From positions 1 to 58,786 of IMG/VR virus record IMGVR_UViG_3300033067_002133: 58,786 nucleotides of DNA; one strand, 5' to 3'. Position numbers and translations under genes: made by a program. The notes below the pieces were generated by a model. The model was not told where the DNA came from. It was given only the letters and a program-made list of their open reading frames with translations, and did no database searches. Positions 403-38,873 of the stretch are shown here, in pieces (position 1 is the stretch's first letter; the number at the start of each line of letters is the position of its first letter). This DNA is from a virus. Lineage: Duplodnaviria > Caudoviricetes.

Positions 403-413
403 GGCGTGGGCTC

Positions 414-719: not shown

Positions 720-733
720 GTCGTTCGGGCTCC

Positions 734-952: not shown

Positions 953-995
953 TGTTCGGGCTCCTGGTTGGGTGTCGGATGTCTTCCACTGTAAC

Positions 996-1024
996 TATAT
1001 TGGCTAAAGCTTGTAATTGTCAAC
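996..1024 (-). promoter_or_regulatory. repeated promoter motif copy 1
   Basis: GTTGACA-attacaagctttag-CCAATATA on - strand. Confidence 0.8.
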
Positions 1025-1207
1025 AAAAGGCCAATATTGCAGGGTTTTTGCCGCTTTTCGCTGCGGTCGGAGCCCCTTTTCCAGAAACTGCCTGTTATTT
1101 AGGCAGCACTGCCTATTTTTTGGGCAATATCACATTCCTGTCGCCATTGATGCGGTTTTTGCTGTTTTCCTGCCGTTTCGCTCGGCCTGGTCGTTTTTCG
1201 CTCATGC

Positions 1208-1567
1208 TTAACTTTTCGGCACGTCTGCGGCTGTTGTCTTCTCAGATTGCCTATTTTGACAATCTGAGCGATTGATAATGTGGGTTAGGTCTTGTGCGGC
1301 GTCGGTGATTGCTTGTGCGAGTTCGGCGATTTGGCTGATTGTTTTCGTCTCGCGTGGTGTTGGTAGGTTGCTGAGCCAGTTGGCTATGCTGTTTTGTAAA
1401 TCGATCACTTCGGGGCTGTCTTTTGTTTGCCCTTTGTGAATGGTTCCGTTGTTGACTCGTGCCAGCAGTGCTGCGGTTAGTTGTCGTGCGATCAAGGCGT
1501 TTTGCTTGTCAAGTTCTTGCTTGATTGCCTGGTTGTCTGTTTGTTGGTTGTCTGGTGTCTGGTTCAT
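1208..1567 (-). CDS. hypothetical protein
   Basis: 119-aa ORF co-oriented with cluster. Confidence 0.55.
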   Translation of the reverse strand: MNQTPDNQQTDNQAIKQELDKQNALIARQLTAALLARVNNGTIHKGQTKDSPEVIDLQNSIANWLSNLPTPRETKTISQIAELAQAITDAAQDLTHIINRSDCQNRQSEKTTAADVPKS

Positions 1568-1692
1568 GTTCTGCAGCTAGCCCAGGGGGGGAATGCGGGC
1601 GGGGGCTGACGCCCCCTGCCCTGGTGTTGATGCTTGTTATCTCTCTCTTGCTGTCTGTACTGCCTTTGGTGTGTTCTATGGTGTTTTTGGTG

Positions 1693-1701
1693 CTATTTCA
1701 T
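1693..1701 (-). other. two-codon minigene ATG-AAA-TAG or nonsense-disrupted small gene
   Basis: AAGGAG RBS 9 nt upstream; the frame stays open past TAG to TGA at 1564-1566. Confidence 0.4.
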
Positions 1702-1744
1702 GGTTGGGGGCTCCTTGTGTGGGTTTGGTGGTTTTCCGGTCGTC

Positions 1745-1787
1745 ACAATGCCGCGCCGGTTCTCCTTGTCGGCGCGGGGTTGTTGCG
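1745..1787 (-). repeat. conserved intergenic GC hairpin, copy 1
   Basis: CCGCGCCG-N11-CGGCGCGG followed by CATTGT on - strand. Confidence 0.7.
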
Positions 1788-1794
1788 ACTGGGT

Positions 1795-2340
1795 TTAGTA
1801 CTGTTCCAAAATTGCCGCCAGTTTCTCGATTTGCTGCATGTTAAACACCTTGGCCATCTGATCGCTGGTTTCCTGGCAAGCTCGATAGATCGCTTCTGCC
1901 TTACGGCTGTCGGTGTCATACCCAAACTCATCCGCCCAGCTTTTGAATGTTTGAGATCCTGCCCGGGCGTCCATAATCAGGCACGATAGGACGGCTGCGG
2001 CTGCCGGCTTCTTCCCTCCGGTCCCTTTCTCTACGTCCATTGCTAGGCGGAGCGTTTCAAGTCGTCTGTCGTGCCAATCTTTGATGTTGTTGAGCCGATT
2101 ATATTTCGGGTGATGTGCGACGCCTTGCCAGAAATCGGTTTCCATTGCGGCGCCTTGATTCGGCTGGGTCATCTTTCGGAATCCTACCTTCCAAGCGATT
2201 TGCCAGTTCTTCGTTTCCTCGTCTTGCTTGCCAGGTACTTGGCGGGCTCCGTATTCGATACCCCAATCTCGCAGGCACTCATCAACGGCCGATTCTCGCT
2301 GTTGGGTCGTCATTTCGTCATAGTTGGCGGTTTCGTCCAT
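1795..2340 (-). CDS. conserved phage hypothetical protein (start moved to ATG 2340)
   Basis: GGAG RBS; C-terminal motif TFKSWADEFGYDTDSRKAEAIYRAC typical of a phage family. Confidence 0.75.
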   Translation of the reverse strand: MDETANYDEMTTQQRESAVDECLRDWGIEYGARQVPGKQDEETKNWQIAWKVGFRKMTQPNQGAAMETDFWQGVAHHPKYNRLNNIKDWHDRRLETLRLAMDVEKGTGGKKPAAAAVLSCLIMDARAGSQTFKSWADEFGYDTDSRKAEAIYRACQETSDQMAKVFNMQQIEKLAAILEQY

Positions 2341-2416
2341 CGTTTTTCTCCGTGTTTTTGGGGTTCTGTTAAACTGGGGTATTTTCATCCCATTTTTTGG
2401 GACGTTTTCAGGGCAA

Positions 2417-2455
2417 ACAATGCGGCGCGGGTTGTGAGTGCCGCGCCGGGTTGCG
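2417..2455 (-). repeat. conserved intergenic GC hairpin, copy 2
   Basis: CGCAACC-CGGCGCGG-N10-CCGCGCCG-CATTGT on - strand. Confidence 0.7.
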
Positions 2456-2459
2456 TGTC

Positions 2460-2684
2460 CTACTTCGGTCCGGTCCATGTGATTAGGTGGCTACCGTCAA
2501 CCTTGATCAATTGGGCTCGCGTTAGCATGCCTAAAACCTGGTTGTACTGGTCAAGGGTCATAAAGGCCATCACGGAATTGGAGTAAAGATGCCCGCTCGG
2601 TACGGTTCCGAGGGCTCGGATCGCGTCGGCGATTGCTCGGATCGCTTGGATTGCGGCTTGTTTTTGTGCTGGGGTTGCGTTCAC
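2460..2684 (-). CDS. small hypothetical protein, possible winged helix (start moved to GTG 2684)
   Basis: ATG 2741 lies inside the promoter motif; GGAGAAAGAAGCA-GTG is in frame. Confidence 0.6.
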   Translation of the reverse strand: MNATPAQKQAAIQAIRAIADAIRALGTVPSGHLYSNSVMAFMTLDQYNQVLGMLTRAQLIKVDGSHLITWTGPK

Positions 2685-2729
2685 TGCTTCTTTCTCCGTG
2701 TTTGTTGTTGTCGTCTCGGTCACTGTCTT

Positions 2730-2758
2730 TATATTGGCCATAACTTTTATTTGTCAAC
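2730..2758 (-). promoter_or_regulatory. repeated promoter motif copy 2
   Basis: GTTGACA-N14-CCAATATA. Confidence 0.8.
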
Positions 2759-3068
2759 AGTCAGCCGTTTCGCCATTGGTTGCCGTCTGGGTTGCCGTCA
2801 AGCTGCCTGGTTTGTCTACTTCGGTCCACGGCGCGAACGGGTCAATCCCGCTGGCCATTACTGGGCTCGCGCTTCGCCATCGTCCGTCGATCGTTTTGGC
2901 TGCGATCACTCTCCACTGGTTATCCTCCCACTGGGCCACGGCGCTATCGGTGGCGTTGCGCGCGTATCGCTGGTGGCGATATCCGTTGTGCCTGATTAAG
3001 TCGGTCGCGGTCGTTTCTGGTGTCGGGTCAATCATTGTTTCGGGCTCCGTGTTGTTTGTTTTTGCCAT
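2754..3068 (-). CDS. hypothetical protein
   Basis: 104-aa ORF; an internal ATG with GGAGCCC RBS may be the true start. Confidence 0.55.
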   Translation of the reverse strand: MAKTNNTEPETMIDPTPETTATDLIRHNGYRHQRYARNATDSAVAQWEDNQWRVIAAKTIDGRWRSASPVMASGIDPFAPWTEVDKPGSLTATQTATNGETADC

Positions 3069-3223
3069 TGGTTAATCCATAGGGCCGAATAAAACGGTTT
3101 ATGGTCCTTGTAAAGCAATCGCGTTACATTCCCTCCCGTCCATGTTTCGATCTGTCCGCTGCCGTCCACCATTGCGAAACAATACCAATCTTCGCCCATC
3201 AAATCGGGCATCTTTTCTGAATG

Positions 3224-3406
3224 CTAAATTGCCGCTCCGCCTTCATTGCTTAACCGGAATAACCAGCGCTCAAGCCGCTGCCGTGATCTGGTAACGGTTG
3301 GTGTTTGCTCCATGTTACGGCGCGCCATTACTCGACGGCGAATGTCTTCGACAATGGATTGCTTACGCCTCTCGCGTCGTTCCGTTGTTCGTTTTTTAGT
3401 TTTCAT
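3224..3406 (-). CDS. small Arg/Lys-rich protein (start moved to ATG 3406)
   Basis: GGAG RBS; the track start lies inside promoter copy 3. Confidence 0.6.
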   Translation of the reverse strand: MKTKKRTTERRERRKQSIVEDIRRRVMARRNMEQTPTVTRSRQRLERWLFRLSNEGGAAI

Positions 3407-3450
3407 GTTCGTTCGGACTCCGGTTTGCGTTGTTGTTCTCAACTCGATCC

Positions 3451-3479
3451 TATATTGGTTTAATCCGTTTGCTGTCAAC
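3451..3479 (-). promoter_or_regulatory. repeated promoter motif copy 3
   Basis: GTTGACA-N14-CCAATATA. Confidence 0.8.
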
Positions 3480-3498
3480 GTGGCGATTTCGCCATTGA

Positions 3499-3747
3499 TT
3501 ACTGGATGCCGATTTCCTTATCAAAAGCTTTCGCGTCTTCGATTGCGTGTCTTAGCTTCTGCTCGATGCTGTCTTCGTGCGGGTCCATCATTTGGGTCAA
3601 GTCGTCTTTGATGTCGTCGATTGTGCCTATGATGTCGTGATCGTGTCCGCTGCATAGTTCGGCCACTTCCGCCAAGCGTTCCTGAATTCGGTCAATGCTC
3701 GCGCGCAGGTCGTCGCGGATTTCGGTAATCATGTCTTGCGCTTTCAT
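3499..3747 (-). CDS. acidic helical hypothetical protein
   Basis: AAGGAG RBS, 82 aa. Confidence 0.7.
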   Translation of the reverse strand: MKAQDMITEIRDDLRASIDRIQERLAEVAELCSGHDHDIIGTIDDIKDDLTQMMDPHEDSIEQKLRHAIEDAKAFDKEIGIQ

Positions 3748-3785
3748 CGTCGTTTTCTCCTTGTTCTGTTTGTTTCTAAGTCCTC

Positions 3786-3824
3786 ACAATGCGGCGCGGG
3801 GTTCCAATGCCGCGCCGGGTTGCG
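3786..3824 (-). repeat. conserved intergenic GC hairpin, copy 3
   Basis: CGCAACC-CGGCGCGG-N10-CCGCGCCG-CATTGT on - strand. Confidence 0.7.
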
Positions 3825-3832
3825 GTGACTCT

Positions 3833-4096
3833 TTAGACTTCAGCCAGGTTAAGATTGTCGCGCAGTGCGATTGCAAGTCTTGCGTTCATCGCCTCTAAAC
3901 TTACTCGCTTTTTGTGGTCGGGCTCGATCTTGTTTAGGTGCTTTCCGGTCGTCGGTCCCCATTGGTTTTCGACTACCGTATAGCCTTTACCGGCAACGTG
4001 GAATCCTACGGCCGTTTCGTAGCTAAAATAGATCGTTACGTCTCCCATTTCCACGGATGTAAAGTTCGGCGCGATTTGCTTTAGTTTTACTGACAT
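3833..4096 (-). CDS. conserved small phage protein
   Basis: YFSYETxV...TTGKHLN motif common in phage early proteins. Confidence 0.75.
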   Translation of the reverse strand: MSVKLKQIAPNFTSVEMGDVTIYFSYETAVGFHVAGKGYTVVENQWGPTTGKHLNKIEPDHKKRVSLEAMNARLAIALRDNLNLAEV

Positions 4097-4141: not shown

Positions 4142-4170
4142 TATATTGGTTTTATCTGCTACCTGTCCAC
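4142..4170 (-). promoter_or_regulatory. repeated promoter motif copy 4
   Basis: GTGGACA-N14-CCAATATA (1 mismatch). Confidence 0.75.
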
Positions 4171-4820: not shown

Positions 4821-4849
4821 TATATTGGTTTTATCTTGTGCGTGTCAAC
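4821..4849 (-). promoter_or_regulatory. repeated promoter motif copy 5
   Basis: GTTGACA-N14-CCAATATA. Confidence 0.8.
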
Positions 4850-5593: not shown

Positions 5594-5622
5594 CATATTG
5601 GTTTTAACTTGTGACTGTAAAC
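5594..5622 (-). promoter_or_regulatory. repeated promoter motif copy 6
   Basis: GTTTACA-N14-CCAATATG (2 mismatches). Confidence 0.7.
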
Positions 5623-7262: not shown

Positions 7263-7291
7263 TATATTGGCTATACCCTGTCAATGTCAAC
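7263..7291 (-). promoter_or_regulatory. repeated promoter motif copy 7
   Basis: GTTGACA-N14-CCAATATA. Confidence 0.8.
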
Positions 7292-8319: not shown

Positions 8320-8688
8320 TTACGTTACCGTCACTTTCCAATCGGTTAGTTTCAATGCCTCTGCCAGTTTTTCGAGAACCGTTCTCGATGTCAACTTTTC
8401 TGGGAACGGATCGGTCGTTTTAACTCCTGCCTGATGCAGAGACTCGATCAAGCTTTCGGTTAGCTTTCGCTCCCCGTATGCAGTGCCAACGCCTCGCCGG
8501 CGAATGCCTCGATAGTCGATCTCCAGCATCGACGTTCGTTTAGTTCCGCTTTTGTTGGCCTTCTCAATAATCTGAGCGGCCGGTTTTAGTTCACCGCCAT
8601 CATAATAAAGCAATGTGGTGATCTTCATGCCAAAGTAGGCAATACCAACCGGCCGCTCTGACCAGCAATCTTCAATTTCAAGCTTCAA
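8320..8688 (-). CDS. hypothetical protein
   Basis: fills the gap between coupled genes; GGAG RBS, TTG start. Confidence 0.6.
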   Translation of the reverse strand: MKLEIEDCWSERPVGIAYFGMKITTLLYYDGGELKPAAQIIEKANKSGTKRTSMLEIDYRGIRRRGVGTAYGERKLTESLIESLHQAGVKTTDPFPEKLTSRTVLEKLAEALKLTDWKVTVT

Positions 8689-9082
8689 CCGTACTCCAGT
8701 TCAAAACATTGTTTGTGGTTTTCGCCTCGTCAACCTTCTCCTCGGTTTGCGTGATATCGAATACAGTGCCGATAATAAAACCGGTCCCTGCTTGCTCCTC
8801 GCCTTCCTTCTTCTTCCGGCTGATCGGAACCCAGATACCAAGCCCTTTTTCGCCTTTTCGCACCACACGACCGGCTTTCATCCACTGCTGGAATCCACCA
8901 ACTACTGTTGCACCTGGCCGCTGCCGAATCACAAAGCAAGAATTGAATGGGCTAAGTGGTTTTTGGTCGATCGTCATAATCGCGCCGCAATTGGCTACAA
9001 TCTCGTGCCGCTGTTCCTGACTCATCGCACTGATCTCTTTCGCCAATGCTTGCAATTGCTCGCGTCTTTCGTTCGTTTTCAT
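8678..9082 (-). CDS. ArdC N-terminal-like ssDNA-binding domain protein (start moved to ATG 9082)
   Basis: SPFN..QRPGATVVGGFQQW..GRVVRKGEKG..IWVP..VFDITQT. Confidence 0.8.
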   Translation of the reverse strand: MKTNERREQLQALAKEISAMSQEQRHEIVANCGAIMTIDQKPLSPFNSCFVIRQRPGATVVGGFQQWMKAGRVVRKGEKGLGIWVPISRKKKEGEEQAGTGFIIGTVFDITQTEEKVDEAKTTNNVLNWSTVEA

Positions 9083-9249
9083 CGGTTCGCTCCCTTTTGT
9101 TGGTTTAGATAAAAATTGTGGCGTGAACATATTGAACTAAGCTCAATCAACTGCATTCCGTATTTGTTCGCAATTGCCTGGTATGCTTGGGTCGATACCT
9201 TGAATTGCTTCCATAGTCGGTATGCTTTTTTTAAGTCGGTCGGGCTCAT
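9079..9249 (-). CDS. 56-aa hypothetical protein (below ORF-track cutoff)
   Basis: AGGAG RBS, MSPTDLKKAYRLWKQ..., ATGA overlap with the ArdC-like gene. Confidence 0.6.
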   Translation of the reverse strand: MSPTDLKKAYRLWKQFKVSTQAYQAIANKYGMQLIELSSICSRHNFYLNQQKGANR

Positions 9250-9282: not shown

Positions 9283-9311
9283 TATATTGGATATATCCGA
9301 TAGATGTCAAC
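9283..9311 (-). promoter_or_regulatory. repeated promoter motif copy 8
   Basis: GTTGACA-N14-CCAATATA. Confidence 0.8.
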
Positions 9312-9337
9312 AAACAAAATCGGCATTTTACTGCCGA
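9312..9337 (-). terminator. possible intrinsic terminator after the sigma-domain gene
   Basis: TCGGCA-GTAAAA-TGCCGA-TTTTGTTT. Confidence 0.5.
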
Positions 9338-9344
9338 CATTGAT

Positions 9345-12329
9345 TTACGCTTTTTCTTGCTCGATATCGATCATTGCGTCGTGGACATCGCCTTTTAGGT
9401 CTGGGCGATTATCGTTGATGTATTTGATCATTAACCGCTGATGTATTGGCTGTGTGTTTGACAGAACGCGATATACGTCTGATCGTCTAAGCTTGCTGAT
9501 ATCATCTGCCGCTATCTTTACCATCGCGTCTGGATTGAAATCGTGTATCGATACCGATTTGCTTTCAGGTTTTCGTACCAACTCATCTGGAACGCCTGGC
9601 TCATCCAAGAATTGCGTTTGTCCTGCAAGTCCGCTGGTGCTGAATAGTGCCGATTGCGTTTCCTTGGGTTGCGGTGCTGTCGGTTTCTTGACGGCTTGCG
9701 GTTTAACGTCATTGCCAAATAAGTCTTTGCTCATCGCTTTCTCCTGTGGTGGTTGTTGCGACTCACTTATTGGCTTTTCCTTTGACTTGTCAACACCTTT
9801 CAGCCGCTCCATTACCATGTTAACGCGACGGCTTTGGGTTTCCGCCATTGGTCTAATCTTGTCGATCGACCGCTTGATGATCATGTTGATATTCTGCCGC
9901 GACTCGCCCATTTCCTTGGCTACGTCCGTTTGCTTCTGTCCTTTGATGTAAACCTTCTCAAGAATAGTTCTCTCCCGCTCTGGAAGTTCTGATAAAAACG
10001 ATTTAACCGAATTTCTCAAGTCCACTTGCGTCGGTTCATCCGGCTCTCGCATTTCGGCTGCGCGGTGATCGGCCACGTTGGCAATCATGTCGCCTTCGAC
10101 ATTGGAGCCTAGCGCTGGCTGATTCAAGCTCACAGTCGATCGATCGTCGCGTTTTTTTCTCGTCTCGTGACGATACATATTAATTCGTGTCGTATTGGCA
10201 ATCGCAGCAATCCACGTTGAAAACTTAAAGCCTTTTGCTGGATCAAATCGATGCCTGTTTTGATGCGCTGCAAGTAGCACCTCTTGAGTGAAGTCGTCAA
10301 GATAATCCTCGCCTTTCTTGCCGAGCCCTTTCTTGACTGCCCATTTTCGAATACCGTTATGAATCTTCGGATCGTTGATTAGCTCATCGAAGTTTGCAAC
10401 CGCTTGCGGTTTTTCTTCGGGCTCAACAATACTGACGGCGGCGCTCTCTGGTTTTTCTTGCGCGGCTGGTACTTCCGGTTCATCGCTAGGCTCGTCAATC
10501 TTTACCGCTGCCGCCTGCTCCTCTTGAGCGCGTTTCTGTTTGAATAATTCTTGAGCCCTGGCTCGTGCTGGATGAATCGGCTTGTCGGCCACCATGCTGT
10601 CTCGCATTTGGATCATGCGAAACATATCTTTTTTGGTTAAGTTCTCGCCTCTCGACAAGTCCCAAATGTTTTTGTTTTCAGCGATCGACTGCTGAACGAT
10701 TCGCTTGATTTTGTCGTCAACGCTTTCGGGCTGCGATTTCGGCGTCTCGCTGACTGGGGAATCTTCTGGCTCTTTGATCTCGACCGCCTCGCTGTCCATC
10801 GGCAATCGCATAACCATCTGACCGCCGCGATCGACGGCTTCCACCTTCGGTCCTTGACCAACCGGCTTTTTGCTTTCGTTATCATCGAATAGCGATTTTG
10901 TCTTTTGCTTAGCTACGAATGCCGCCATTTCATCGTAGGCTGATGTTTTCTTGGTCGGGCGTTCAACCATTTGCAGTGGATTAGTCGGCTTGATCGGGCC
11001 ATCGTTTCCATGCTCTAACGTTTCTGGAGGATCTCCATGCGGATCAAACAAAACGCCTTGATTCGGATCGAAGTCTTTGAGCAAGTGCCAGCGAGGCTTT
11101 CCTGCTGTCGTGTCCTTCAAAATGTACGTGTGGCCGTCAACCTTTTTCAACGAACCGATCTTCCAAACCTTAGCATTGAACATCTCGCGGCCCATCGCAT
11201 TAGTCGTTGGTCCTAATGGCATGGCGTATCGCAGTGGATTTCCTTTTGAAAACGGAACGCTATCGTCTCGCTTTTCTGGCTTCCAGTTTTCATCTTCAGA
11301 ATCCTTTCCGTCGCCGTCATAAAACGCTTGGGATCGATCGTAGTAATGAGTTCCCATCAACTTGTCGGTGTCCAGATACTTGTCAACCGCCTTGAAAATT
11401 TCTGGGTCGTGAGGCTGGATTTCTGGCTTCACTCCCATTCGAATTGCATCGGCAAATACTTCAAGCGGATCAGTTTGAGCGCCTGAAACATTCTTTTGCA
11501 TGTGACTCATAAGCACTGGTAAATGATGCTCGTACTGACTCATGTGCGTATCGAATCCGCGAATAGAATCGACATCGCTGTTTTCCAGCGCTTTGGTTAC
11601 TTTATTCTTGAACGATCGTCGATTCTCACCGCTAATGTCTTTGACTGCGGCATTCCAATCACGAATACCGTCATTTCGTCGACCGGCTTCTTCCAGTGCT
11701 GCTTGCTTGATCAATGGAAACACTTCAGGGTGATCGCCATACCGCGCCACGATATTTGTATCTAACGCTTTTCTGCGGTCGTATGTAACCGGCGTGTAGT
11801 TTTTCTTCCCTGTATCGTTGTAAACCGGGTGATAGTGTTCTCTCTCAAAATCATTAGGCGCATGGATATCTCTCGCTTGCGGCTCCCAACCTTCTGGAAC
11901 ATGAGACAGATCGACATTGTAGTCTCCATGCTCGTTTGGACTGATGACTGCGAACGACTTTTTATTCAAATCGAGATGGTCCGCATGTTCTGGAAAGTTC
12001 GAATCGTGAAAGTAGTGATAATCCGCTTTCGGGTTTCCAAAATGCGTGGCGTGATTGTTGAATAGATGCATGTGATCGCCCGTTCGCACCATCACCGCAT
12101 CGTACTGTGCAAGATCAGGCGAAAATGAGGAATCACCAACATGCGAATCGTACAGATTTTTAGCGATAGACTTGCCATTGTCTCCCATGTCCGGCATTTT
12201 TGGTTTTGGCGCATTAATGTTGAATTCATCTGGATCGAATGAATCATCTTCTTGCGTGGCCAACGAACCAAAAAAATCGTCGTCTTCTGGGGTGTCGACG
12301 CCATCTTTGTTGTATCGCATTTTGAGCAT
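9345..12329 (-). CDS. ~994-aa multidomain protein with embedded sigma-70 family domain (regions 2 and 4, ~9850-10370)
   Basis: DDFTQEVLL..RFDPAKGFKFSTWIAAIA; VSLNQP; LSELPERERTILEKVYIKGQKQTDVAKEMGESRQNINMIIKRSIDKIR; AAGGAG RBS at the portal stop. Confidence 0.85.
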   Translation of the reverse strand: MLKMRYNKDGVDTPEDDDFFGSLATQEDDSFDPDEFNINAPKPKMPDMGDNGKSIAKNLYDSHVGDSSFSPDLAQYDAVMVRTGDHMHLFNNHATHFGNPKADYHYFHDSNFPEHADHLDLNKKSFAVISPNEHGDYNVDLSHVPEGWEPQARDIHAPNDFEREHYHPVYNDTGKKNYTPVTYDRRKALDTNIVARYGDHPEVFPLIKQAALEEAGRRNDGIRDWNAAVKDISGENRRSFKNKVTKALENSDVDSIRGFDTHMSQYEHHLPVLMSHMQKNVSGAQTDPLEVFADAIRMGVKPEIQPHDPEIFKAVDKYLDTDKLMGTHYYDRSQAFYDGDGKDSEDENWKPEKRDDSVPFSKGNPLRYAMPLGPTTNAMGREMFNAKVWKIGSLKKVDGHTYILKDTTAGKPRWHLLKDFDPNQGVLFDPHGDPPETLEHGNDGPIKPTNPLQMVERPTKKTSAYDEMAAFVAKQKTKSLFDDNESKKPVGQGPKVEAVDRGGQMVMRLPMDSEAVEIKEPEDSPVSETPKSQPESVDDKIKRIVQQSIAENKNIWDLSRGENLTKKDMFRMIQMRDSMVADKPIHPARARAQELFKQKRAQEEQAAAVKIDEPSDEPEVPAAQEKPESAAVSIVEPEEKPQAVANFDELINDPKIHNGIRKWAVKKGLGKKGEDYLDDFTQEVLLAAHQNRHRFDPAKGFKFSTWIAAIANTTRINMYRHETRKKRDDRSTVSLNQPALGSNVEGDMIANVADHRAAEMREPDEPTQVDLRNSVKSFLSELPERERTILEKVYIKGQKQTDVAKEMGESRQNINMIIKRSIDKIRPMAETQSRRVNMVMERLKGVDKSKEKPISESQQPPQEKAMSKDLFGNDVKPQAVKKPTAPQPKETQSALFSTSGLAGQTQFLDEPGVPDELVRKPESKSVSIHDFNPDAMVKIAADDISKLRRSDVYRVLSNTQPIHQRLMIKYINDNRPDLKGDVHDAMIDIEQEKA

Positions 12330-12331
12330 GA

Positions 12332-15300
12332 CTATCTCCTTCTTCGGTGGTGCATATGTGACGACATCACCCACATTACCGCCAACAATCCTGCCAGGAT
12401 CAGCAAATTTCGTTTTCCGCCCACTGCGTCCGCTAAACTGTCGTACCATCCTTTGGTTGACTTTTGTTCGCTCAAATGGTTTAACGACGCAACCAGCGAC
12501 TCTTGATACATTTTCATGGCCTTCTTGTCACCACGAACCAAGTGTTCCTTCAATACGCTCATGGTGTACGGAGGCTTAAACCCTCGCTTCATTGCGGTTT
12601 GCAGAATATGCTGCGCGGCTTTCGTCGACTGAACATATCGACTATGCGCTGGATTTGGTTGCCAGCCAAGATTGATCGCTGCGGCGCTTAGCTTATCCAA
12701 TCGCTCAGTTTGCTGATGCAGGAACTTGCCGGCCGCAATTGTTTGCTCCTCTTTGCTCGCTCCTCGCATGTTGAGCCCTAAATGATGGGCTGTCTGCCGA
12801 ATGAAATTGCCGACTGCATTTTGATTGTGCAAGTTTCTTTCATTAAATCCAAACGCTACGGCAACTTTGTTGATCTTCCGCATTGTGCCTGGCGGAATCT
12901 TCATTGTGGTTGCCTTGTCTTCCGGTTGCTGACCTGGGACACCTGTTGGATTTTTCTGATGCCAATCTACTGCCTCTTGAAACAGCTTTGGATCGACCTT
13001 TGATCCGAAATCGTCGTCGTTGACAAGATCTGGAATCTGGCGATTTTCCCAAGCAGTTATACCGGTAGTCTTATCGTGGATCTTCTCCCAATCACCGATT
13101 TTAGTTCCAACCGGCATTGATCGAACATGCAAGATGTCTGGCTTGCTTCCTGTTGGCGATTGCTGCGGTGCGGCTGGCTGTGTCGGTTTCGCCTGCTGCT
13201 CTTGCGTCAGCATTGGTTCTGGCGACTGAGGGGACTGGGAATCTGGCGCTGGTGCGTCAACTGATTCGTCTTGTGGAACTTCCGTCAACGCTTGTTCATC
13301 TTGCGGCACAACCGTTTTTGCTTGCTCTGCATCGAGCGACTGTTTCTGCGATACCGCTTCCAATCGTTTCTGCCAATCACCAACATTGCCGCCAAGATGC
13401 TTAATGACCTGGCCTGCGTCTGCCGGAATTTGACTGCCTTCGATCCAGAATTTTCCGTGTTGCTTTTTAACGCCATCGATCTCTGCTCCATCAGGCAGTG
13501 CGTCAAGCTTTCCTTTGACATCTGACATGCGAAGCGATTCCTGCGCAACTGGCTGTTGCTGAATGTCGACTGGTGCGGCATCACCAGCTTTGTGCGGGAA
13601 CATTTGGTCGACCACTTGTTGGCCTTTTTCGCTCGTTAGCCAATCAGTCATTTCGCCTGGATGTGTGAATTGGGATTTCATCGCGTGTGCAAGTTCATCG
13701 GCCTTCATAACCGAACCCGCGTCTCGATGACCACGCTCCCATGCCAATTGAATCAAGCTACTGGAGCCCGGCGCCATCTTTTTCTCTTGCGGTGGATTAC
13801 CAAGCTGCATTTGCAACAAAACCGTTTCTGCTTGTTTTTTGTTTAGCTTTGTGGCTGCATTAGCTTGCTTGCTCCAAATCGCTTTGTGTTCGTCAATCTT
13901 CTTTGCTTTCTCTTGCTCAACTCGTGCCGCCTCTGCGGCCGCTTCTTGCTGCTTTCGTTGCTCCATTGCCTGCGAAACATTAGCGGCATGCTTTTCGATA
14001 GTTTGGGGATCATACCCTTCGTCCGAAAAACTGAAATCGCCGCCTTTGCCGAACAGCGTATTTCCATTTACCTTCATACCGTTTTGATCGGACTTCCACG
14101 TATCGTTCCCTAAATGGGTGTACGAGCCCTTCGTCGGTGACTGAGCCACCAAATTGGTAGGCAGCACTGAACGCTGCTCTTTACTTGCGATGTGATTCTT
14201 GAAATCAAACTTCCGCGCTGGATCGTTGTTTGCTTCCAGATATGCCTGCCGCTCCTCGTTTGACGCTTCTTCAAACTCTTTTCGTGGAATCAATTGGCCG
14301 TACTCAAACTGTTTTCCTGCCAGCGTGACTCCGCCAAATGGAGCATAGCCACGATGAACCATGTCGTTGTGCAACTCTCGACGTTTGAGCATCGGCCTGT
14401 GGCCATCATCGACCTGTTTTTCGTCTTGTGGCTCAACTGGCTTCGGCTGATCAACTTGAGGCTGCTGTGGCTCAACTGGCGCGGGGTCTTGTTTTGGCTC
14501 TGCCTGTGGCTGCGATTGAATATTTTCATCCGAACTAACGCTAGATTCACCAGATTGCTTTTGAACTGGCGCTGCCGATTTCCTGGCTGCTGCCCATGCT
14601 TGCATATTCGGTGCTTCGACTGAAGCCTCGGCCGGCTTCACCTTCTTCAGCTTTGGCATTTTCACCTGGCGAACCTCGCCATGCTGCATGCCCTTCATTT
14701 GCTCCTTAACGCTATCGTGAACCGCCTTGGCGTGATGCAATAGTTCTTCTTCGGGGAGCCCGTGTTCGGCCACCAGCTTGTCTCGCAACTTGGCAACCTG
14801 GATCGCATGCTGGCCTTGGCTTTTCTGGTCAGTTTTGCCACTGGCCAAACGAGTCATCTTTGCGGCACTGGCATAATCGTGAAGATCCCGGTGAAGCGGG
14901 TTTTCAAACTGAACCGTCCCATGATTCATGCCGGCGATGTAATTCCTGGTCAGGTTGGACGGTTTTTGGCCTGCTGGAGCCCCTGGCTTCAATTCTGGCG
15001 CTGGTTTGCTATCGTCAGCCTTCCATCGGCCACCCTGTAGCGTTTCCTGGCCTCCTGAGTCGCTAATGCGGCTTGAGCCCGGTTGTGGGTCTATTCCGCC
15101 CTTAACCTCGGCCTCGGCGCCCGGTTCAGGCAAATCGATCTTTGGCGGTTTGGCTGGCAAGCCGATTTTCGATTCACTCGGCTCTTGGACGTACCGTTCA
15201 GGCTGCTTGCCCTTTCGATACCGCGGATGGCCTTCGAATTGATCGTACTGCTCGTCGATTCCATGCGGATCGTGATCTGGGTGATTCGGATCGGTTTCTG

Positions 15301-16924
15301 GATCGCCGCCTCCCGGCCCTTCTGGTCCTGAATCGTTGGGCGGTCCACCGCTCGGCCCACCGTCTGGTCCCTGGCCTGGCAATTGCGTTCCTGGCGGCAT
15401 CTGATTTCCGCCCTGCTGCATCACCTGCTCCTGCTGTTTCAATTGAAGCTTTTGAGCGACGATCGCAGGATTGAACAGCTTCAGATCTCCGCGGCCTGGG
15501 GCATTCAAGCCTAACCTAGCCAGAACTTCCGCTCCGTTCAATTCGGCGCCCATGTCCCAAGCAGCTTTCATCGCCATTAACTCCTGCTGAGGAATCGTCG
15601 ATTCAGGATTCAGCCGAAAGTAAAACGGGACGTTGCGATACTGAGGATAATTCCAATCACGCAGAACATCGACCTTCTCCCTGGTGACAGTTTCCTCCAG
15701 CGCCGCCGAGTCACTCCTGACGATCTGCTTCAAGCTGTCGTGCTGCAAATCGGCAACACCGCTGTTGCCAATACCACCACCTGCCGCCTTGGTTGACAGT
15801 GTTTGACCAAGAATAAACCTGGTGATCATATCACCAAAGTAATTGTCGATTAGATTTTGCAATGCCTGCATGCCGGCCGTGTTCATCGGAATCTGCTCTA
15901 CCGTTGGCATCTGCGGCATCGCCGGATCGTAAGGCGCAAGAATCACATTAGTCTTGCCCTGCTGCGCGGCAACCTTCTCGATCTCTTGCTTGTAAGTGTA
16001 ATTGCCTGTTGGGTAGTAATAGATCGTGAACCCCATCGCTGTCCGCTCGACGATTTCGACAAGCTGTGCGAGGGTTTCTTGCTTTTGATACCAAGTCCAG
16101 TACAAAAAGTTTCGTATGCCAACACCTTGGACGTAACCGGCCGACACCGGATCTTCGTACTCGCCATCACGAATCATATGCTTATGAACGATGATTCGAC
16201 GACGCTCCCACCCATCAAAAAACACCGCGGGACCATCGGGCGTTAAGTCTGCTTTTAAGTTGTGATACAATCCTCCTTCATTGTTTCGATTCAAATGAGA
16301 CATGCTAACTTTGATACCAACCCCATCTGGATCATAGCTGCCTGAATTATCATCAAATCGAAACACAAGCTTATCGCCATTAATTGGCATCCACTTGTTG
16401 ATATGCCACTGCGGCTTTCCGGCTCGATCGTGACTTCTCGCTGCACTATGCAAAATCGCATACTTCCCATACCAAATTGCCTCGCTCAAAACGCGAAGGT
16501 ACTCGGTGAATCGATATGTCTTCGAAACCAGCCTGGTCAAATGCGCTGCCGCCTGAAGTAGTTGCTTGTCATGCTTATCTTCGGGCTCAATACTCCAATT
16601 CAACAACGACACCATTCGCTGCCGCGCTTGCAGCGGTCCAGAGATTACCGGATCGTTAAGCATCGCTGCCGCATTTTGAACATTATGCAAAATAGCCTGA
16701 TCGGCATTCCTGTAAACCTTGGCGAGACTACTGACGAGTCCGCCAAACGTGTAGATGTGAGGGATAACCGTCTTTCCAAAATTAGACGGCATCGAAGTTC
16801 CACTCGTTGGATCTACGTTTAACTGTTGTCGATACTTGATTGGCGCAAGCTGACCTGGTAGGTAGTTGGTTCCTCCCGCGCGAAAACCACCTGGCATATC
16901 GACTACAAATTGATGGTCACTCAT
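12332..16924 (-). CDS. Mu gp29-like (DUF935) portal protein with ~1000-aa C-terminal extension
   Basis: EAIWYG, G.GI...LYW.W, ILGQTLST, LEETVT..V..L.D.N in the first ~490 aa; located after terL. Confidence 0.85.
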   Translation of the reverse strand: MSDHQFVVDMPGGFRAGGTNYLPGQLAPIKYRQQLNVDPTSGTSMPSNFGKTVIPHIYTFGGLVSSLAKVYRNADQAILHNVQNAAAMLNDPVISGPLQARQRMVSLLNWSIEPEDKHDKQLLQAAAHLTRLVSKTYRFTEYLRVLSEAIWYGKYAILHSAARSHDRAGKPQWHINKWMPINGDKLVFRFDDNSGSYDPDGVGIKVSMSHLNRNNEGGLYHNLKADLTPDGPAVFFDGWERRRIIVHKHMIRDGEYEDPVSAGYVQGVGIRNFLYWTWYQKQETLAQLVEIVERTAMGFTIYYYPTGNYTYKQEIEKVAAQQGKTNVILAPYDPAMPQMPTVEQIPMNTAGMQALQNLIDNYFGDMITRFILGQTLSTKAAGGGIGNSGVADLQHDSLKQIVRSDSAALEETVTREKVDVLRDWNYPQYRNVPFYFRLNPESTIPQQELMAMKAAWDMGAELNGAEVLARLGLNAPGRGDLKLFNPAIVAQKLQLKQQEQVMQQGGNQMPPGTQLPGQGPDGGPSGGPPNDSGPEGPGGGDPETDPNHPDHDPHGIDEQYDQFEGHPRYRKGKQPERYVQEPSESKIGLPAKPPKIDLPEPGAEAEVKGGIDPQPGSSRISDSGGQETLQGGRWKADDSKPAPELKPGAPAGQKPSNLTRNYIAGMNHGTVQFENPLHRDLHDYASAAKMTRLASGKTDQKSQGQHAIQVAKLRDKLVAEHGLPEEELLHHAKAVHDSVKEQMKGMQHGEVRQVKMPKLKKVKPAEASVEAPNMQAWAAARKSAAPVQKQSGESSVSSDENIQSQPQAEPKQDPAPVEPQQPQVDQPKPVEPQDEKQVDDGHRPMLKRRELHNDMVHRGYAPFGGVTLAGKQFEYGQLIPRKEFEEASNEERQAYLEANNDPARKFDFKNHIASKEQRSVLPTNLVAQSPTKGSYTHLGNDTWKSDQNGMKVNGNTLFGKGGDFSFSDEGYDPQTIEKHAANVSQAMEQRKQQEAAAEAARVEQEKAKKIDEHKAIWSKQANAATKLNKKQAETVLLQMQLGNPPQEKKMAPGSSSLIQLAWERGHRDAGSVMKADELAHAMKSQFTHPGEMTDWLTSEKGQQVVDQMFPHKAGDAAPVDIQQQPVAQESLRMSDVKGKLDALPDGAEIDGVKKQHGKFWIEGSQIPADAGQVIKHLGGNVGDWQKRLEAVSQKQSLDAEQAKTVVPQDEQALTEVPQDESVDAPAPDSQSPQSPEPMLTQEQQAKPTQPAAPQQSPTGSKPDILHVRSMPVGTKIGDWEKIHDKTTGITAWENRQIPDLVNDDDFGSKVDPKLFQEAVDWHQKNPTGVPGQQPEDKATTMKIPPGTMRKINKVAVAFGFNERNLHNQNAVGNFIRQTAHHLGLNMRGASKEEQTIAAGKFLHQQTERLDKLSAAAINLGWQPNPAHSRYVQSTKAAQHILQTAMKRGFKPPYTMSVLKEHLVRGDKKAMKMYQESLVASLNHLSEQKSTKGWYDSLADAVGGKRNLLILAGLLAVMWVMSSHMHHRRRR

Positions 16925-17910
16925 TGAAGACCTCTAGGGTTGTTGTACCCTGGTAAATTTGAAACTAAGAATGGCCGTCGCCCTTGACCGATAGACGGAA
17001 CGGAACGAACGCGAAAGCCTAAACTAGATGACTTGCGCGGCGTGTAAGCTGCAAACGATCCATTGCCAAGCGATAGGAATGTTGGAGTCACCAATTGATA
17101 CGTGTACTGATGCTCCCAAAGACTTCCGCAAACTCGCAATCGCTGCCAAACGAATTCGCCCTTACTCATTGCTTTTCGCATTTCATTGAACACGGACTGC
17201 GGCACTGGTTTTGCGCGACTTCCGTAGGCGTAAAGCGGGCCTGGAATATGCGCCTTGTGTCCCATCATGTACGGTTTGCCGTTACATTGATTTATCTGTC
17301 CGGTGTAATGCGTTGGAGTGGTCTGAGCCTTGTACTGCACATAAAGAATTCCGCTTTCGGCATCATAATTGAAACCGTAAACGTTGCTGCTCTCTGGAGT
17401 CTGAATCAAATTTCCGACAACATCGCCGGCTGATCCATCCTCAACTCCCATCGCTTTCAGCAAGCTATCTCGCTGGATCTTTTGTCGCCGACTTCCGATA
17501 CCGCCGACTGTGGGGACCGTCGCCACTTCAAACGTGGGAGTTTTTAATCCGAACTCTTGCGGCCCCAATCGAATCGGACCTTCTGGTGGGATCTCGTTTC
17601 CAAATCGAATCATCTCAAGCTGATCTGGAGTCGATAGCTCGTTTTGGTTTGGAACTTGCACGATCGTTTCGTACTCGTACAAACTAGGATCTGGCTCCCC
17701 TTTACTGGCGAATCCAGATTGCTCCATAAGTTCGGCGCTACGGCGGATATCATCTGGGGTTGCGGCGCCACCGGTACGGAAGATATCGACAACTGCACCA
17801 AACAATCGGCCGACTTGGCCGTGTGTCCGAGACAGCGCTTCAGAAAACGAACCGCCAAATGCGGATTTCATTAGACCGTAAACGCGGCTTAGTAGTCCTT
17901 TGTCCTTCAT
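16921..17910 (-). CDS. KTSC-domain protein
   Basis: ESSNVYGFNYD...LYVQY...YAY..VPQSVF..M..AMSKGEFV. Confidence 0.75.
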   Translation of the reverse strand: MKDKGLLSRVYGLMKSAFGGSFSEALSRTHGQVGRLFGAVVDIFRTGGAATPDDIRRSAELMEQSGFASKGEPDPSLYEYETIVQVPNQNELSTPDQLEMIRFGNEIPPEGPIRLGPQEFGLKTPTFEVATVPTVGGIGSRRQKIQRDSLLKAMGVEDGSAGDVVGNLIQTPESSNVYGFNYDAESGILYVQYKAQTTPTHYTGQINQCNGKPYMMGHKAHIPGPLYAYGSRAKPVPQSVFNEMRKAMSKGEFVWQRLRVCGSLWEHQYTYQLVTPTFLSLGNGSFAAYTPRKSSSLGFRVRSVPSIGQGRRPFLVSNLPGYNNPRGLQ

Positions 17911-17979: not shown

Positions 17980-19551
17980 CTATCTGGAAAATTTTACACC
18001 TTTTCCCATTTCGCCCTTGATGATCAAAGGCGTCATTTTCATGCCCTCTCCGGTCCTATCGGTATGAATCATGTATCGTAGAGCATCAACGCTATCATCA
18101 TCAAATTTGAGTGGAACAGGCCTTGCCGATCGCGGGTTGAGCCCTCTTTGGCTACTTTTCTCCCATCGGTAAGTTGACATTTGCCTGGCAAGCTTTGGAC
18201 ATCTATTTCGGTCGATAATGATTCCTGGGGTGTCTGTTCTTGGGTCTTTTCGCAAAACTTTTCGGACACTTTCAATCCCCTCATAAACCGCATTGTTCGC
18301 AGCCGTCATGTAAATTCCAAACGATGCAAACTCACGAAACAAGTCCGGCCGACTTGGATCTCCATAAGTCTGCAAGTGGTATCCGTCCTGCTCCCAGGTC
18401 TTACGCCTTTTGATTTCTGCCGCGTGATCTTTCCATAGATAGGTTTGGCTGTTTGACCAGTATTCGTCAAAAATGTACCAAATACCAGTAGCATCCTTGA
18501 ACCCCCAAAGACAAACGAATGGATGTTCCTCGCTGGAGCCCCAGTCGATCGACCGTTTGAAGAAAACGTAATCAGGAATCACAATCGAGTCGACCAAATG
18601 GACCTTCGGTGAAAATGTTTTGTAAACAACACCTTCGTATGTTGCAAAAACACCTTTTTTCCGAGTCTCCATCATCTCGTCGCTGACGCCGGCAAAAAAC
18701 GTGTCGTACCACGCCTTATCGACATGGCCTGCGTTCATGGCCGATTCAGTATTCAGGTGATAGAACGACCAATTCCTAAACCGCTCGTCTCCAACGGTCC
18801 AGTGTTGATAGATCTCCTGCAACCGGATCGCCTTCTCTGGATCGATAGGCGTTTGCTCGCAGATGATACTCCCTGGGAATGCACATTCACGAACACCGCG
18901 AAGAACTTCCTCAAACACATCGTAAGGAAACTGTTCTGTGAACCAAGCGCCGCCGATCGCCGCGGCCTGCATTAGCTCGCGTCCCTGCTCGTAACTCTTG
19001 AATTCGATAATCCAGTTTTTGTCTGTGCCTGGCTTTTGCGGGTGAAGTGGAACGGAGAATGGCCATTGGCGATTTGTGTTGTACCAACTGATCCGGTCTG
19101 TATCGACCCATTCTGCTGGAAGTATGTTTTTCAGCTTTTGAAACCATGCTGTCGAACAAACTTGCTCGTAAGTATTGGAGATGATCCAAAAAGGCGTGTC
19201 TTTGAATGGCGGTGGCGTCGTTCGCAGAAACTCCGCTACTTTTTGTGCCGCGACAAACGTTTTTCCAGATCCATTGCCTCCTATGGCAATTGAAACCAGC
19301 TTGTTTGATTCATAGAAGCCGGTTTGTTCATCGCCTTGACTGATCTTGTCCGGCCGCGGCTCGAAGCTGTCAAAAGGGTGATTGAACAATCGATCGACAT
19401 AAGCGTTGATCGTTTTGTCATTTAGCTTTTCAAGATCCTTGAGAATTCGAGGGTTGTCGGCAATATCTTGGCGCAACTGCTTTCTGTCGCGCCAAGTCTT
19501 AGCACCGACTAATCGATTGAGCCATTGTTTTACCGCGCTAACTTTCTTCAT
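17980..19551 (-). CDS. terL: terminase large subunit
   Basis: Walker A GGNGSGKT; FKSYEQG; nuclease IDWG, YGDPS, DDSVDALRY. Confidence 0.92.
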   Translation of the reverse strand: MKKVSAVKQWLNRLVGAKTWRDRKQLRQDIADNPRILKDLEKLNDKTINAYVDRLFNHPFDSFEPRPDKISQGDEQTGFYESNKLVSIAIGGNGSGKTFVAAQKVAEFLRTTPPPFKDTPFWIISNTYEQVCSTAWFQKLKNILPAEWVDTDRISWYNTNRQWPFSVPLHPQKPGTDKNWIIEFKSYEQGRELMQAAAIGGAWFTEQFPYDVFEEVLRGVRECAFPGSIICEQTPIDPEKAIRLQEIYQHWTVGDERFRNWSFYHLNTESAMNAGHVDKAWYDTFFAGVSDEMMETRKKGVFATYEGVVYKTFSPKVHLVDSIVIPDYVFFKRSIDWGSSEEHPFVCLWGFKDATGIWYIFDEYWSNSQTYLWKDHAAEIKRRKTWEQDGYHLQTYGDPSRPDLFREFASFGIYMTAANNAVYEGIESVRKVLRKDPRTDTPGIIIDRNRCPKLARQMSTYRWEKSSQRGLNPRSARPVPLKFDDDSVDALRYMIHTDRTGEGMKMTPLIIKGEMGKGVKFSR

Positions 19552-20143
19552 TCGTGATTCGCAATTTGTTTCGCTTTAGTGTTTCTTGCAAACCAGAATA
19601 AAGCGCCTCCGCGCCTTGTGCGGCAGCGTTGATGGTGATGTTATTCACCGTCTTTTGTTGCTTCTTGGTTTTGTATTTCGGGTTGTTAGCCTTCAATACA
19701 GTCGCCAACAAGTAATCGCTGCCTTCCAAGGCGCGTTGGATCGCTATTTCTTCCAAAAAAGCAAAGCCAATACGCATTGCTGCATTACTGGCCTTGAGAA
19801 ACTTCGTGCTTGACTGTCGCCATTTGTAGACTTTTTTTACATCTACGCCGGCAATCGATGCAGCCTTGGTTATCGATGGGAAATGCTGCAATACTTTAAT
19901 GACTGCTTTCTGCTCCTGAGTTAAAGCGAAAAACTCCGCTTTCCTCTGGTCAGACTTGTGCATCTTGCTACGGTAATTGCGTCCAAAAGAATTCACGATC
20001 TCGACATCGGATTGTAAGCTCTCCGATTCGGACTCGATAAACGGTTGTGTCGATTCCTCCTGGTCCGAATTCAAGTTCGGAGATGGGATTTCCTCCGGCT
20101 GATTCGTATCCTTCGATGATTCCGACTTGTCGTTCAAATCCAT
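19538..20143 (-). CDS. terS: terminase small subunit
   Basis: HTH SITKAASIAGVDVKKVYKW; LEEIAIQRA..GSDYLL..LKA..P.Y; overlaps terL start. Confidence 0.75.
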   Translation of the reverse strand: MDLNDKSESSKDTNQPEEIPSPNLNSDQEESTQPFIESESESLQSDVEIVNSFGRNYRSKMHKSDQRKAEFFALTQEQKAVIKVLQHFPSITKAASIAGVDVKKVYKWRQSSTKFLKASNAAMRIGFAFLEEIAIQRALEGSDYLLATVLKANNPKYKTKKQQKTVNNITINAAAQGAEALYSGLQETLKRNKLRITNEES

Positions 20144-38852: not shown

Positions 38853-38873
38853 TGCTTCCCTGCTCTTTCTTTC

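Follow-up and report, generated by a model that had tools for sequence, protein, structure and literature searches.

The window analysed here, meaning throughout the whole stretch of 58,786 bases, is a linear metagenomic virus contig held in IMG/VR (record IMGVR_UViG_3300033067_002133) with a CheckV completeness of ~83%. On its minus strand lies the gene for P0001, a mosaic protein of 994 amino acids (aa) in which a complete sigma-2/sigma-4 domain of the sigma-70 family occupies residues ~655-830. This gene forms the final cistron of an operon running in the order terS, terL, KTSC, Mu-type portal and P0001, and the packaging-operon location that an earlier note, made from the sequence alone, had called unusual for a sigma factor is thus borne out. 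The operon comprises the following features, the first four of which come from Pfam and PHROG scans of the open reading frames (ORFs) of the window:

19538-20143, minus strand: terS
17980-19551, minus strand: terL
16921-17910, minus strand: KTSC-domain protein, 329 aa
12332-16924, minus strand: Mu-type portal protein, 1530 aa (Pfam Portal_Mu, 118.4 bits, domain at residues 86-473)
12341-12335, minus strand: Shine-Dalgarno sequence AAGGAGA of P0001, 5 nucleotides (nt) before ATG 12329 and inside the last portal codons
9345..12329, minus strand: P0001 gene, likely start ATG 12329 (alternatives GTG 12374 and ATG 12449)
9319..9338, minus strand: terminator-like hairpin followed by TTTGTTTGTT, a T-rich tail, 7 nt past the P0001 stop codon

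The longest P0001 frame from a first ATG runs from 12449 to 9345 (minus strand, 1034 aa), and the public gene call, P0002, starts 15 codons upstream of ATG 12329 to give 1009 aa. The stop codon of the portal gene (TAG, 12334-12332) falls between the Shine-Dalgarno sequence and ATG 12329, an arrangement by which P0001 is apparently translationally coupled to the portal gene. The portal protein carries a C-terminal extension of ~1030 aa (residues ~500-1530; window 12332-15424, minus strand) without Pfam domains, which terminates in the hydrophobic stretch LLILAGLLAVMWVM and then HHRRRR; this extension was considered as possible kin of P0001 and rejected, as comparison revealed no sequence relation.

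The sigma domain is recognised by several independent models. Pfam Sigma70_r2 matches residues 676-724 at 41 bits (cut-off 24), Sigma70_r4 matches residues 779-826 at 37.9 bits (cut-off 24.1) and Sigma70_r4_2 scores 26.7 bits (cut-off 25.7), while the NCBIfam model of the sigma70-ECF superfamily, TIGR02937, covers residues 655-826 at 76.3 bits (cut-off 42.9) over model positions 13-162 of 165. Matches to the PHROG sigma families 351 and 1740 have E values of 4.7e-20 and 1.5e-17, and the best sequence match in the PDB is region 4 of SigF (8jzt_A, E 7.7e-5), with weaker matches to RpoS and RpoE. Among the NCBIfam models that score next are those of Planctomycete and Verrucomicrobium ECF subfamilies, all far under their own cut-offs (53 bits against 183.75 for the Planctomycete subfamily TIGR02984, and 39.3 against 124.55 for TIGR02989), and region 2.3 is of the short form (FSTW...IANT). 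Along P0001 the domain is laid out as follows:

10146..10367, minus strand: sigma-2 domain, residues ~655-728, regions 2.1-2.4, including RFDPAKGFKFSTW (Pfam, TIGR02937, helices of the AlphaFold2 (AF2) model)
10020..10145, minus strand: linker between sigma-2 and sigma-4, residues ~729-770, including SLNQP (predicted local distance difference test score, pLDDT, below 50)
9840..10019, minus strand: sigma-4 domain with helix-turn-helix, residues ~771-830 (Pfam r4 and r4_2; structure match to SigF region 4)

A model of this domain was built with AF2 from a five-row alignment of the P0001 sigma domain and its phage relatives; its mean pLDDT is 71.7, with sigma-2 and sigma-4 predicted confidently and the linker disordered. 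Foldseek returned 51 PDB chains at E values of 0.001 or lower, every match listed being a sigma factor, with the ECF sigma-H of M. tuberculosis (6jcx_F, E 2.4e-6) at the top and sigma-L, SigB, AlgU, sigma-E and SigW after it. The TM score is only ~0.3 because sigma-2 and sigma-4 are placed differently relative to each other than in the solved structures. A single-sequence AF2 model of the whole of P0001 was too poor (pLDDT 41.7) and was excluded from the fold search. The earlier note had proposed a sigma-70 domain embedded in a protein of about 1000 aa, and on this Pfam, NCBIfam, the AF2 model and Foldseek agree; the Pfam check that it suggested finds regions 2 and 4 both above the curated cut-offs, and the region-4 helix-turn-helix that it described stands on the Sigma70_r4 score and the SigF match. 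Region 2 is likewise present, with RFDPAKGFKFSTW, although its assignment to the group 1-3 type does not hold, the nearest relatives being minimal two-domain ECF factors (TIGR02937; the sigma-H and sigma-L structures), and the SLNQP segment exists as described but lies in a predicted disordered linker, any region-3.2-like role of which is putative.

Prediction of a complex with core polymerase, also suggested beforehand as a check, was carried out with residues 1-420 of Rhodopirellula baltica RpoC (beta') as the partner, in three runs and three controls. The sigma domain and beta' reached a complex score of 0.83 (runs 0.83, 0.83 and 0.82; best of the three controls 0.01), a mark that 58 of 80 solved complexes attain, as against 2 of 110 mismatched pairs; as sigma and beta' are a textbook pair, this score expresses likeness to solved holoenzymes rather than binding. 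The runs agree in no fewer than 65% of their contacts, and the pLDDT of the partner is 68 or higher. The predicted interface sets the beta' clamp helices (250-328) against P0001 residues 673-690, and linker residues 725-737 also touch beta' in the model. By this prediction, the core-binding face of P0001 looks intact.

It is conceivable that a chimeric assembly or a mis-joined frame has set a sigma gene within a long ORF, as the record is a metagenomic contig estimated to be 83% complete and protein libraries hold no full-length homolog of P0001. This explanation is extremely improbable. An independent contig from a separate metagenome, L211, aligns to window positions 10650-9557 and thereby spans P0001 residues 561-924 without gaps at 98.2% nucleotide identity; its 20 changes in 1094 nt are mostly synonymous (16, against 4 non-synonymous), and within residues 655-830 it differs by 8 synonymous changes and a single V665I, sigma-4 bearing synonymous change only. 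Further, sigma domains lie inside long portal-linked ORFs of four other phages from separate records (see below), and the P0001 ORF has its own Shine-Dalgarno sequence and terminator. The pattern of substitution is that of a gene under purifying selection, and P0001 is almost certainly a real sigma domain in a real gene. The L211 protein stops directly after residue 924 and so lacks the C-terminal module of P0001 (residues 931-994), apparently a modular indel between close variants. As a separate observation, a 119-aa ORF elsewhere in the window (1208-1567, minus strand) has residues 34-94 resembling P0001 748-807, that is, the linker and the start of sigma-4 (30% identity, pairwise E 3e-5); it was considered as a sigma factor and rejected, as NCBIfam finds no sigma family in it.

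The sigma domain is flanked by ~654 aa on its N-terminal side and ~165 aa on its C-terminal side. An exhaustive HMMER search with residues 1-640 against 1.84 billion representative proteins returned, besides P0001 itself, only P0003 (2087 aa, E 2e-14) and P0004 (216 aa, E 6.5e-6), and P0003 is a protein with ART-PolyVal (72.8 bits) and LPD1 (74.6 bits) domains. Three collinear BLASTP matches join the two large proteins, namely P0001 51-140 with P0003 67-158 (E 4e-6), 360-521 with 835-1001 (E 3e-18) and 867-918 with 1149-1205 (E 7e-6). Five modules outside the sigma domain can be told apart:

11910..12179, minus strand: module A, residues 51-140, common to the N-terminus of P0003
11247..11789, minus strand: module B, residues ~181-361, helical, common to P0004, the InPase protein of loci L121/L122 and prophage loci L203 and L206
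11040..11252, minus strand: module C, residues ~360-430, a small beta module ("GKPRWHLL"), with a match in P0003 and strands in the whole-protein AF2 model (pLDDT 41.7)
9576..9731, minus strand: motif D, residues 867-918 ("DLFGN.VKP ... GVPD"), common to P0003
9348..9539, minus strand: module E, residues 931-994, helical, found in giant ORFs of L159, L142 and L143 and in phrog_20105, absent in L211

Module B matches the C-terminal part of the 1114-aa InPase protein, the matches of module E fall in internal parts of the giant ORFs, and both modules recur in giant ORFs that bear InPase or methyltransferase domains. Where polyvalent proteins are recognised by several distinct domains, P0001 has one named domain, the sigma domain, and five independently recurring modules; the hallmark domains are instead found in P0003 and in L121, which share its modules, and in the sigma-bearing P0005 described below. 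Large modular flanks and a protein of polyvalent type, as the earlier note had it, are therefore upheld by the measured flanks, by the collinear matches to P0003, by the presence of the modules in giant post-portal ORFs and by the polyvalent domains held in the corresponding slot of relatives. P0001 very probably belongs to the portal-linked polyvalent cargo.

A word-indexed search of 5.8 billion proteins returned only P0001 itself, with the full-length protein and with the sigma part alone, and nothing among shorter proteins; no relative was returned from IMG/VR, one match, annotated as a standalone sigma factor, was returned from GenBank phages, and tblastn against the 81 loci fetched through P0003 found P0001 only. 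In the ESM Atlas, the whole protein matched short sigma clusters only and residues 1-640 matched nothing. An ART polyvalent protein of locus L002 was considered as kin and found to be unrelated. A short motif, [KQ]x[LM]F[GD]xxV, was noticed at module borders in P0001 (476-483 and 867-875), P0003 (~1149-1157) and P0005 (~92-100 and ~1400-1408); as a cleavage site it was dropped, a looser form ([LM]F[GDAS]xx[VIL]) having given 7 hits in just 4 of 12 proteins.

The surroundings of related portals were surveyed by searching with the portal domain of the window and then with a ten-row portal alignment, keeping the best 80 of 98 relatives, which yielded 82 distinct loci of IMG/VR whose related portals show 33-55% identity. 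All stop-to-stop ORFs of at least 80 aa were scanned by phmmer and two rounds of a hidden Markov model (HMM) seeded on the P0001 sigma domain, and candidates were confirmed by Pfam (19 + 23 ORFs) and NCBIfam. A sigma domain was found in 5 of the 82 loci, a lower bound since all ORFs were seen by the seeded HMM only; 4 of the domains are contiguous with the portal, the five loci represent four distinct phages, and one further case is doubtful. The sigma-bearing loci are:

L099 and L104 (two records with identical portal rows): one 1419-aa ORF with Portal_Mu at 101-486, Sigma70_r2 at 708-778 and r4 at 823-879
L083: a 1577-aa post-portal ORF (P0005) with r2 at 63 bits, r4 at 50 bits and InPase at 111 bits
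L164: a 715-aa portal-InPase ORF and, overlapping it, an ORF of at least 1073 aa with a sigma domain at its start (r2 40.4 bits, TIGR02937 76.5 bits)
L105: a sigma protein of 522 aa, encoded 2.9 kb downstream of a portal of 1718 aa (r2 29 bits, TIGR02937 63.8 bits)

In the L099/L104 fusion, r2 scores 43.7 bits and r4 23.4 bits, just under its cut-off of 24.1, and L099 scores 72.2 bits with TIGR02937. The doubtful case, L146, has a sigma-like stretch inside a 1201-aa portal ORF at 39.6 bits, against the cut-off of 42.9, with no Pfam hit. A small ORF in L108 was rejected as a sigma factor, there being none by NCBIfam. In other loci, the same slot holds InPase, LPD1, LPD3, ART-PolyVal (L084, L111 and L159), PBECR1, GNAT, SNF2 helicase, methyltransferase, type IB topoisomerase and SAM-lyase-like domains, often fused to the portal. 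Single polypeptides of this kind include a portal with a eukaryotic-type topoisomerase I catalytic domain (L136:9887-15367), a portal with InPase and SNF2 helicase (L100:8713-13941), a portal with ART-PolyVal and a SAM-lyase-like domain (L111:9899-15808) and a portal with a PBECR1 nuclease (L090:5849-7834).

In a tree built from 81 portal rows, the window falls together with the L099/L104 portal-sigma fusions (SH-aLRT 99); their sister group (L082, L100, L101 and L165) is without sigma, L083, L164 and L146 lie elsewhere, and the sigma label requires at least three changes, or four with L146. The sigma domains of the relatives are 21-28% identical to that of the window and are of at least two kinds, those of the window and L105 being nearest to Planctomycete ECF models and those of L099, L164 and L083 nearer to group 3 or RpoD/RpoS. 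The portal extension of the window is collinear with the post-sigma part of the L099 fusion (34% identity, E 7e-30), the matching stretch being the last ~180 residues of the portal, hydrophobic segment and basic tail included, and the end of the fusion. The window and L099/L104 thus carry sigma modules that differ in type and in the polypeptide that houses them, but in both the portal-linked cargo keeps a sigma. That nearest relatives should differ in this way suggests repeated recruitment of sigma domains, which argues for a function tied to that location.

Related portals also occur in contigs of bacterial metagenome-assembled genomes (L181-L210), 24 of 30 of which are labelled Planctomycetota, an assignment for which the lineages of two genera were checked. 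Several of these contigs are 0.1-2.4 Mb long, which suggests integrated prophages, and the clade seems to consist largely of temperate phages of Planctomycetota. These contigs, together with the ECF subfamily hits, point to Planctomycetota as the hosts of the clade, and the window phage itself probably infects them as well. To our knowledge, there is little experimental phage biology for this phylum.

Taken together, these data allow the construction of a model in which P0001 is a portal-linked polyvalent cargo protein of a tailed phage, probably of Planctomycetota, the payload of which is a complete ECF-like sigma factor. Polyvalent domains have been read as delivered with the virion, including in fusions to portal and MuF proteins, by Iyer et al. 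(2017; PMC5512222), and it is because the mates of the sigma domain, in slot and in polypeptide, are domains read there as packed into the head and injected that P0001 is proposed to be packaged and ejected. The model proposes that P0001 is made late, alongside terminase and portal, and is built into the capsid near the portal, where its non-sigma modules may serve for packaging or anchoring. It would then accompany the DNA out of the capsid and into the next cell, perhaps having been cleaved, and there sigma-2 would settle on the beta' clamp helices of the host core polymerase and sigma-4 on a -35 element, such that host polymerase could be reprogrammed from the onset of infection without new protein synthesis. 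Packaging, ejection and processing of P0001, and the promoters that it may serve, are what we infer in this model. We rate at roughly 0.5 the probability that P0001 enters the next cell as part of the virion's cargo and works there as a sigma factor.

Part of the argument for delivery is one of timing, as a sigma factor produced from a late packaging operon, and in relatives within the portal protein, would be of little use to the producing cell. A phage sigma factor of the ordinary sort, active in the producing cell on middle or late genes, perhaps autoregulated as many ECF sigmas are, provided with extra domains and unpackaged, would have come to this location by mosaic shuffling. Standalone phage sigmas are indeed common (PHROG 351 and 1740, and the annotated sigma factor matched in GenBank), and L098 has a standalone relative, a 181-aa ORF that was rejected as a fusion. 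However, a sigma factor for late genes must precede the very late operon that encodes P0001, the domain is part of the portal polypeptide in L099/L104, and the regions ahead of the structural operons showed no recurring late-promoter motif. An ordinary role in the producing cell is accordingly unlikely.

Which promoters a delivered sigma factor might fire was approached through repeated upstream motifs. A single promoter-like family, TTGACA-N14-CCAATAT(A), was found at 8 sites (6 exact and 2 degenerate), all on the minus strand and all between 997 and 9310, with positions in the spacer conserved too; 6 exact copies of TTGACA-N14-CCAATAT were observed where 0.03 are expected by chance, and six copies are kept in L211. 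The sites are:

9284..9310, minus strand: first promoter-like site, directly past the P0001 terminator and ahead of a small ORF and the ArdC-N gene
997-1023, 2731-2757, 3452-3478, 4822-4848 and 7264-7290, minus strand: other exact sites, each preceding a small gene
~4143-4169 and ~5595-5621, minus strand: degenerate sites, each preceding a small gene

A consensus scanner reads two sites of the family, that at 9284-9310 among them, as TTGACA-18-TATAGT (11 of 12 positions), and a classical TTGACA-N16-TATAAA site occurs elsewhere in the window (~33291). With a sigma-70 consensus -35 element and a -10 element of TATA type, the host primary sigma may suffice for the family. The eight sites are nevertheless the only candidate target seen for the P0001 sigma. 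The exact motif is absent from the records of ten relatives, in which five one-mismatch matches lie at three places, two common to records G001 and G005 and one in G002. Dyad counting gave nothing beyond this family upstream of annotated starts in the window and weak candidates only in two complete sigma-bearing relatives, and a literature search for a Planctomycete promoter consensus was uninformative.

Several observations were made in and around this cluster of small genes. The first transcription unit past P0001 encodes a 150-aa ArdC-N protein (anti-restriction, single-stranded-DNA-binding; window 8678-9130, minus strand; 26.3 bits against a cut-off of 22.6). Three GC-rich inverted repeats, GGCGCGG...CCGCGCC, stand just past stop codons of small genes (1745-1783, 2417-2455 and 3786-3824) without a T-run, and may be terminators or RNA-stability elements. 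Over window positions 1-4000, the plus strand has a strong AT skew of -0.39, unlike the rest, the coding strand being very A-rich and T-poor. At the other end of the record, the genes for scaffold and major head protein are preceded by that for a 523-aa protein (54665-56236, minus strand), which shares 39% identity with the 518-aa product of the gene right after the L099 fusion. The head module that is unbroken in this relative is thus interrupted in the window by the small-gene promoter cluster, together with the record break. No relation was found between the 523-aa protein and either the trypsin-like protein of L092 or the sigma protein of L105.

If delivery and sigma activity are combined with these promoters, a broader claim can be made, namely that Planctomycetota phages possess a class of capsid-borne sigma factors, having wired sigma-2/sigma-4 at least three times into portal-fused or portal-adjacent cargo. 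Around a dozen copies would enter with the DNA and take hold of the host core at once. Free of control by sigma and anti-sigma factors of the host, they would switch on the conserved early cluster with its eight promoters (the ArdC-N anti-restriction gene and small takeover genes), and portal-fused forms might recruit polymerase to the entering DNA end. This extension is tentative and, taken as a whole, somewhat doubtful. The tentative link between sigma factor and promoters is the main weakness of reading P0001 as an initiating sigma, and it is also the main support for a different possibility, that a sigma-like binder, delivered or made late, acts as a decoy that occupies the host core or displaces host sigmas and so shuts off host, stress or defence transcription instead of initiating at promoters of the phage. 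Such a decoy would be consistent with the core-binding surface being the best supported part of the predicted structure, with no promoter family clearly needing a non-housekeeping sigma being visible, and with the closest subfamily models being Planctomycete ECF groups, so that it could compete with host ECF sigmas. Planctomycetota possess many ECF sigmas. In addition, polyvalent proteins are thought to bear host-hijacking modules aimed at RNA polymerase, according to the relevant parts of PMC5512222 and PMC7824862. However, the sigma-4 helix-turn-helix is intact, over its Pfam cut-off and conserved in L211, and both sigma domains are kept in all relatives; a pure core-binding decoy could do without a region 4 that reads DNA, though this region binds the beta flap as well. 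Decoy action is thus distinctly unlikely; if it were right, it would represent a novel means of silencing ECF-type responses of the host.

Several points weigh against virion delivery of P0001 and its action as a sigma factor in the next cell. P0001 and its relatives are known from uncultured metagenomic sequences alone, and packaging and ejection are read from gene content, a point that counts for an ordinary, unpackaged sigma as well. Sigma payloads are a minority, at 5 of 82 viral loci and one below threshold, and a sigma domain was found in 0 of the 30 related portal loci of bacterial contigs, the flanks of which were scanned. In L105, exonuclease and endonuclease VII genes part the sigma protein from the portal, which likewise speaks for an ordinary phage sigma. 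No Pfam hallmark of polyvalent proteins (LPD, ART-PolyVal, InPase, zincin peptidase and the like) was found in P0001, and the Phage_Mu_F domain (PF04233) had no match in P0001 or in six frames of the window at E values up to 10. Outside the sigma domain, very large protein libraries hold P0003 and P0004 as the only homologs, and the kinship of the modules rests on few pairwise matches, some with E values of 1e-4 to 1e-6. The complex prediction can pass through memory of solved holoenzymes. Lastly, the sole repeated promoter family looks sigma-70-like, no promoter set requires the P0001 sigma, and no ECF-type motif was found by dyad counting upstream of annotated starts in the window or in two complete sigma-bearing relatives.

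Apart from these arguments, the window ends in a 15-nt tandem array (58599-58786) inside a 5'-open ORF, which probably caused the assembly to stop. A divergent region (38693-39141 and 39142-42769) sets a small Cro/CI-like helix-turn-helix ORF beside the only plus-strand gene block (including a helicase), with RecE-, RecT-, RusA- and NinG-like genes nearby in a lambdoid-like layout; no integrase was found among the window ORFs scanned.

P0001 can be compared with several known systems. Its sigma-2/sigma-4 architecture of the sigma-70 family is shared with standalone phage sigmas, such as SPO1 gp28 and T4 gp55, and with the profiles of PHROG 351 and 1740. However, these are small, separate proteins made de novo in early or middle infection, whereas the P0001 domain is embedded (655-830 of 994 residues), is encoded in a packaging operon and, in relatives, belongs to the portal polypeptide itself. 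Bacterial ECF (group 4) sigmas, including TIGR02984 and TIGR02989, have the same two-domain layout without region 3 and the same short region 2.3, and provide the best structural matches, but P0001 scores far under the subfamily cut-offs, carries unrelated flanks of 654 and 165 aa and has no anti-sigma partner that could be seen. Like the polyvalent proteins described in the main text of PMC5512222, P0001 is a large mosaic encoded among late and virion genes beside the portal, with modules common to ART-PolyVal, LPD1 and InPase proteins; it differs from them in its payload, a sigma-70-family domain, and in having no Pfam hallmark or peptidase domain. The virion RNA polymerase (vRNAP) of N4 and the N4-like polyvalent polymerase modules (PMC4496689 and PMC5512222) follow the logic proposed here, in that transcription machinery for the first transcripts is made late and packed in the capsid. 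N4, however, brings a whole single-subunit polymerase, whereas P0001 would bring only a specificity subunit for the host core, and there is no sequence relation between the two. The T4 ADP-ribosyltransferase Alt, as treated in the same main text (PMC5512222), is capsid-borne and targets host RNA polymerase when infection begins, and ART-PolyVal domains occupy the slot of P0001 in relatives. Alt modifies the polymerase covalently, whereas P0001 is proposed to replace the sigma subunit stoichiometrically.

P0001 appears to be a new combination of two known kinds of protein, the polyvalent cargo proteins and the phage sigma factors. The main text of PMC5512222 does not contain the word "sigma" and speaks of no more than "other HTH domains", and a review of jumbo phages (PMC7824862), in the parts that concern them, treats phage sigma factors and polyvalent proteins separately. 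Literature searches, which covered a single library of papers, listed no title or abstract opening describing a packaged, injected or portal-fused sigma factor. If the model is correct, a transcription-initiation factor would join the repertoire of polyvalent and portal-fused cargo domains, and the portal-sigma fusions, with 12 copies at a known position in the capsid, would provide a defined and testable object. Three ways of starting infection are known for phages, namely reliance on the host sigma-70, injection of a complete polymerase (N4 and crAss-like phages) and injection of enzymes that modify the host polymerase (T4 Alt). A packaged sigma factor would, if true, constitute a fourth and cheaper route, in which the specificity subunit is brought along and the catalytic core is borrowed from the host.

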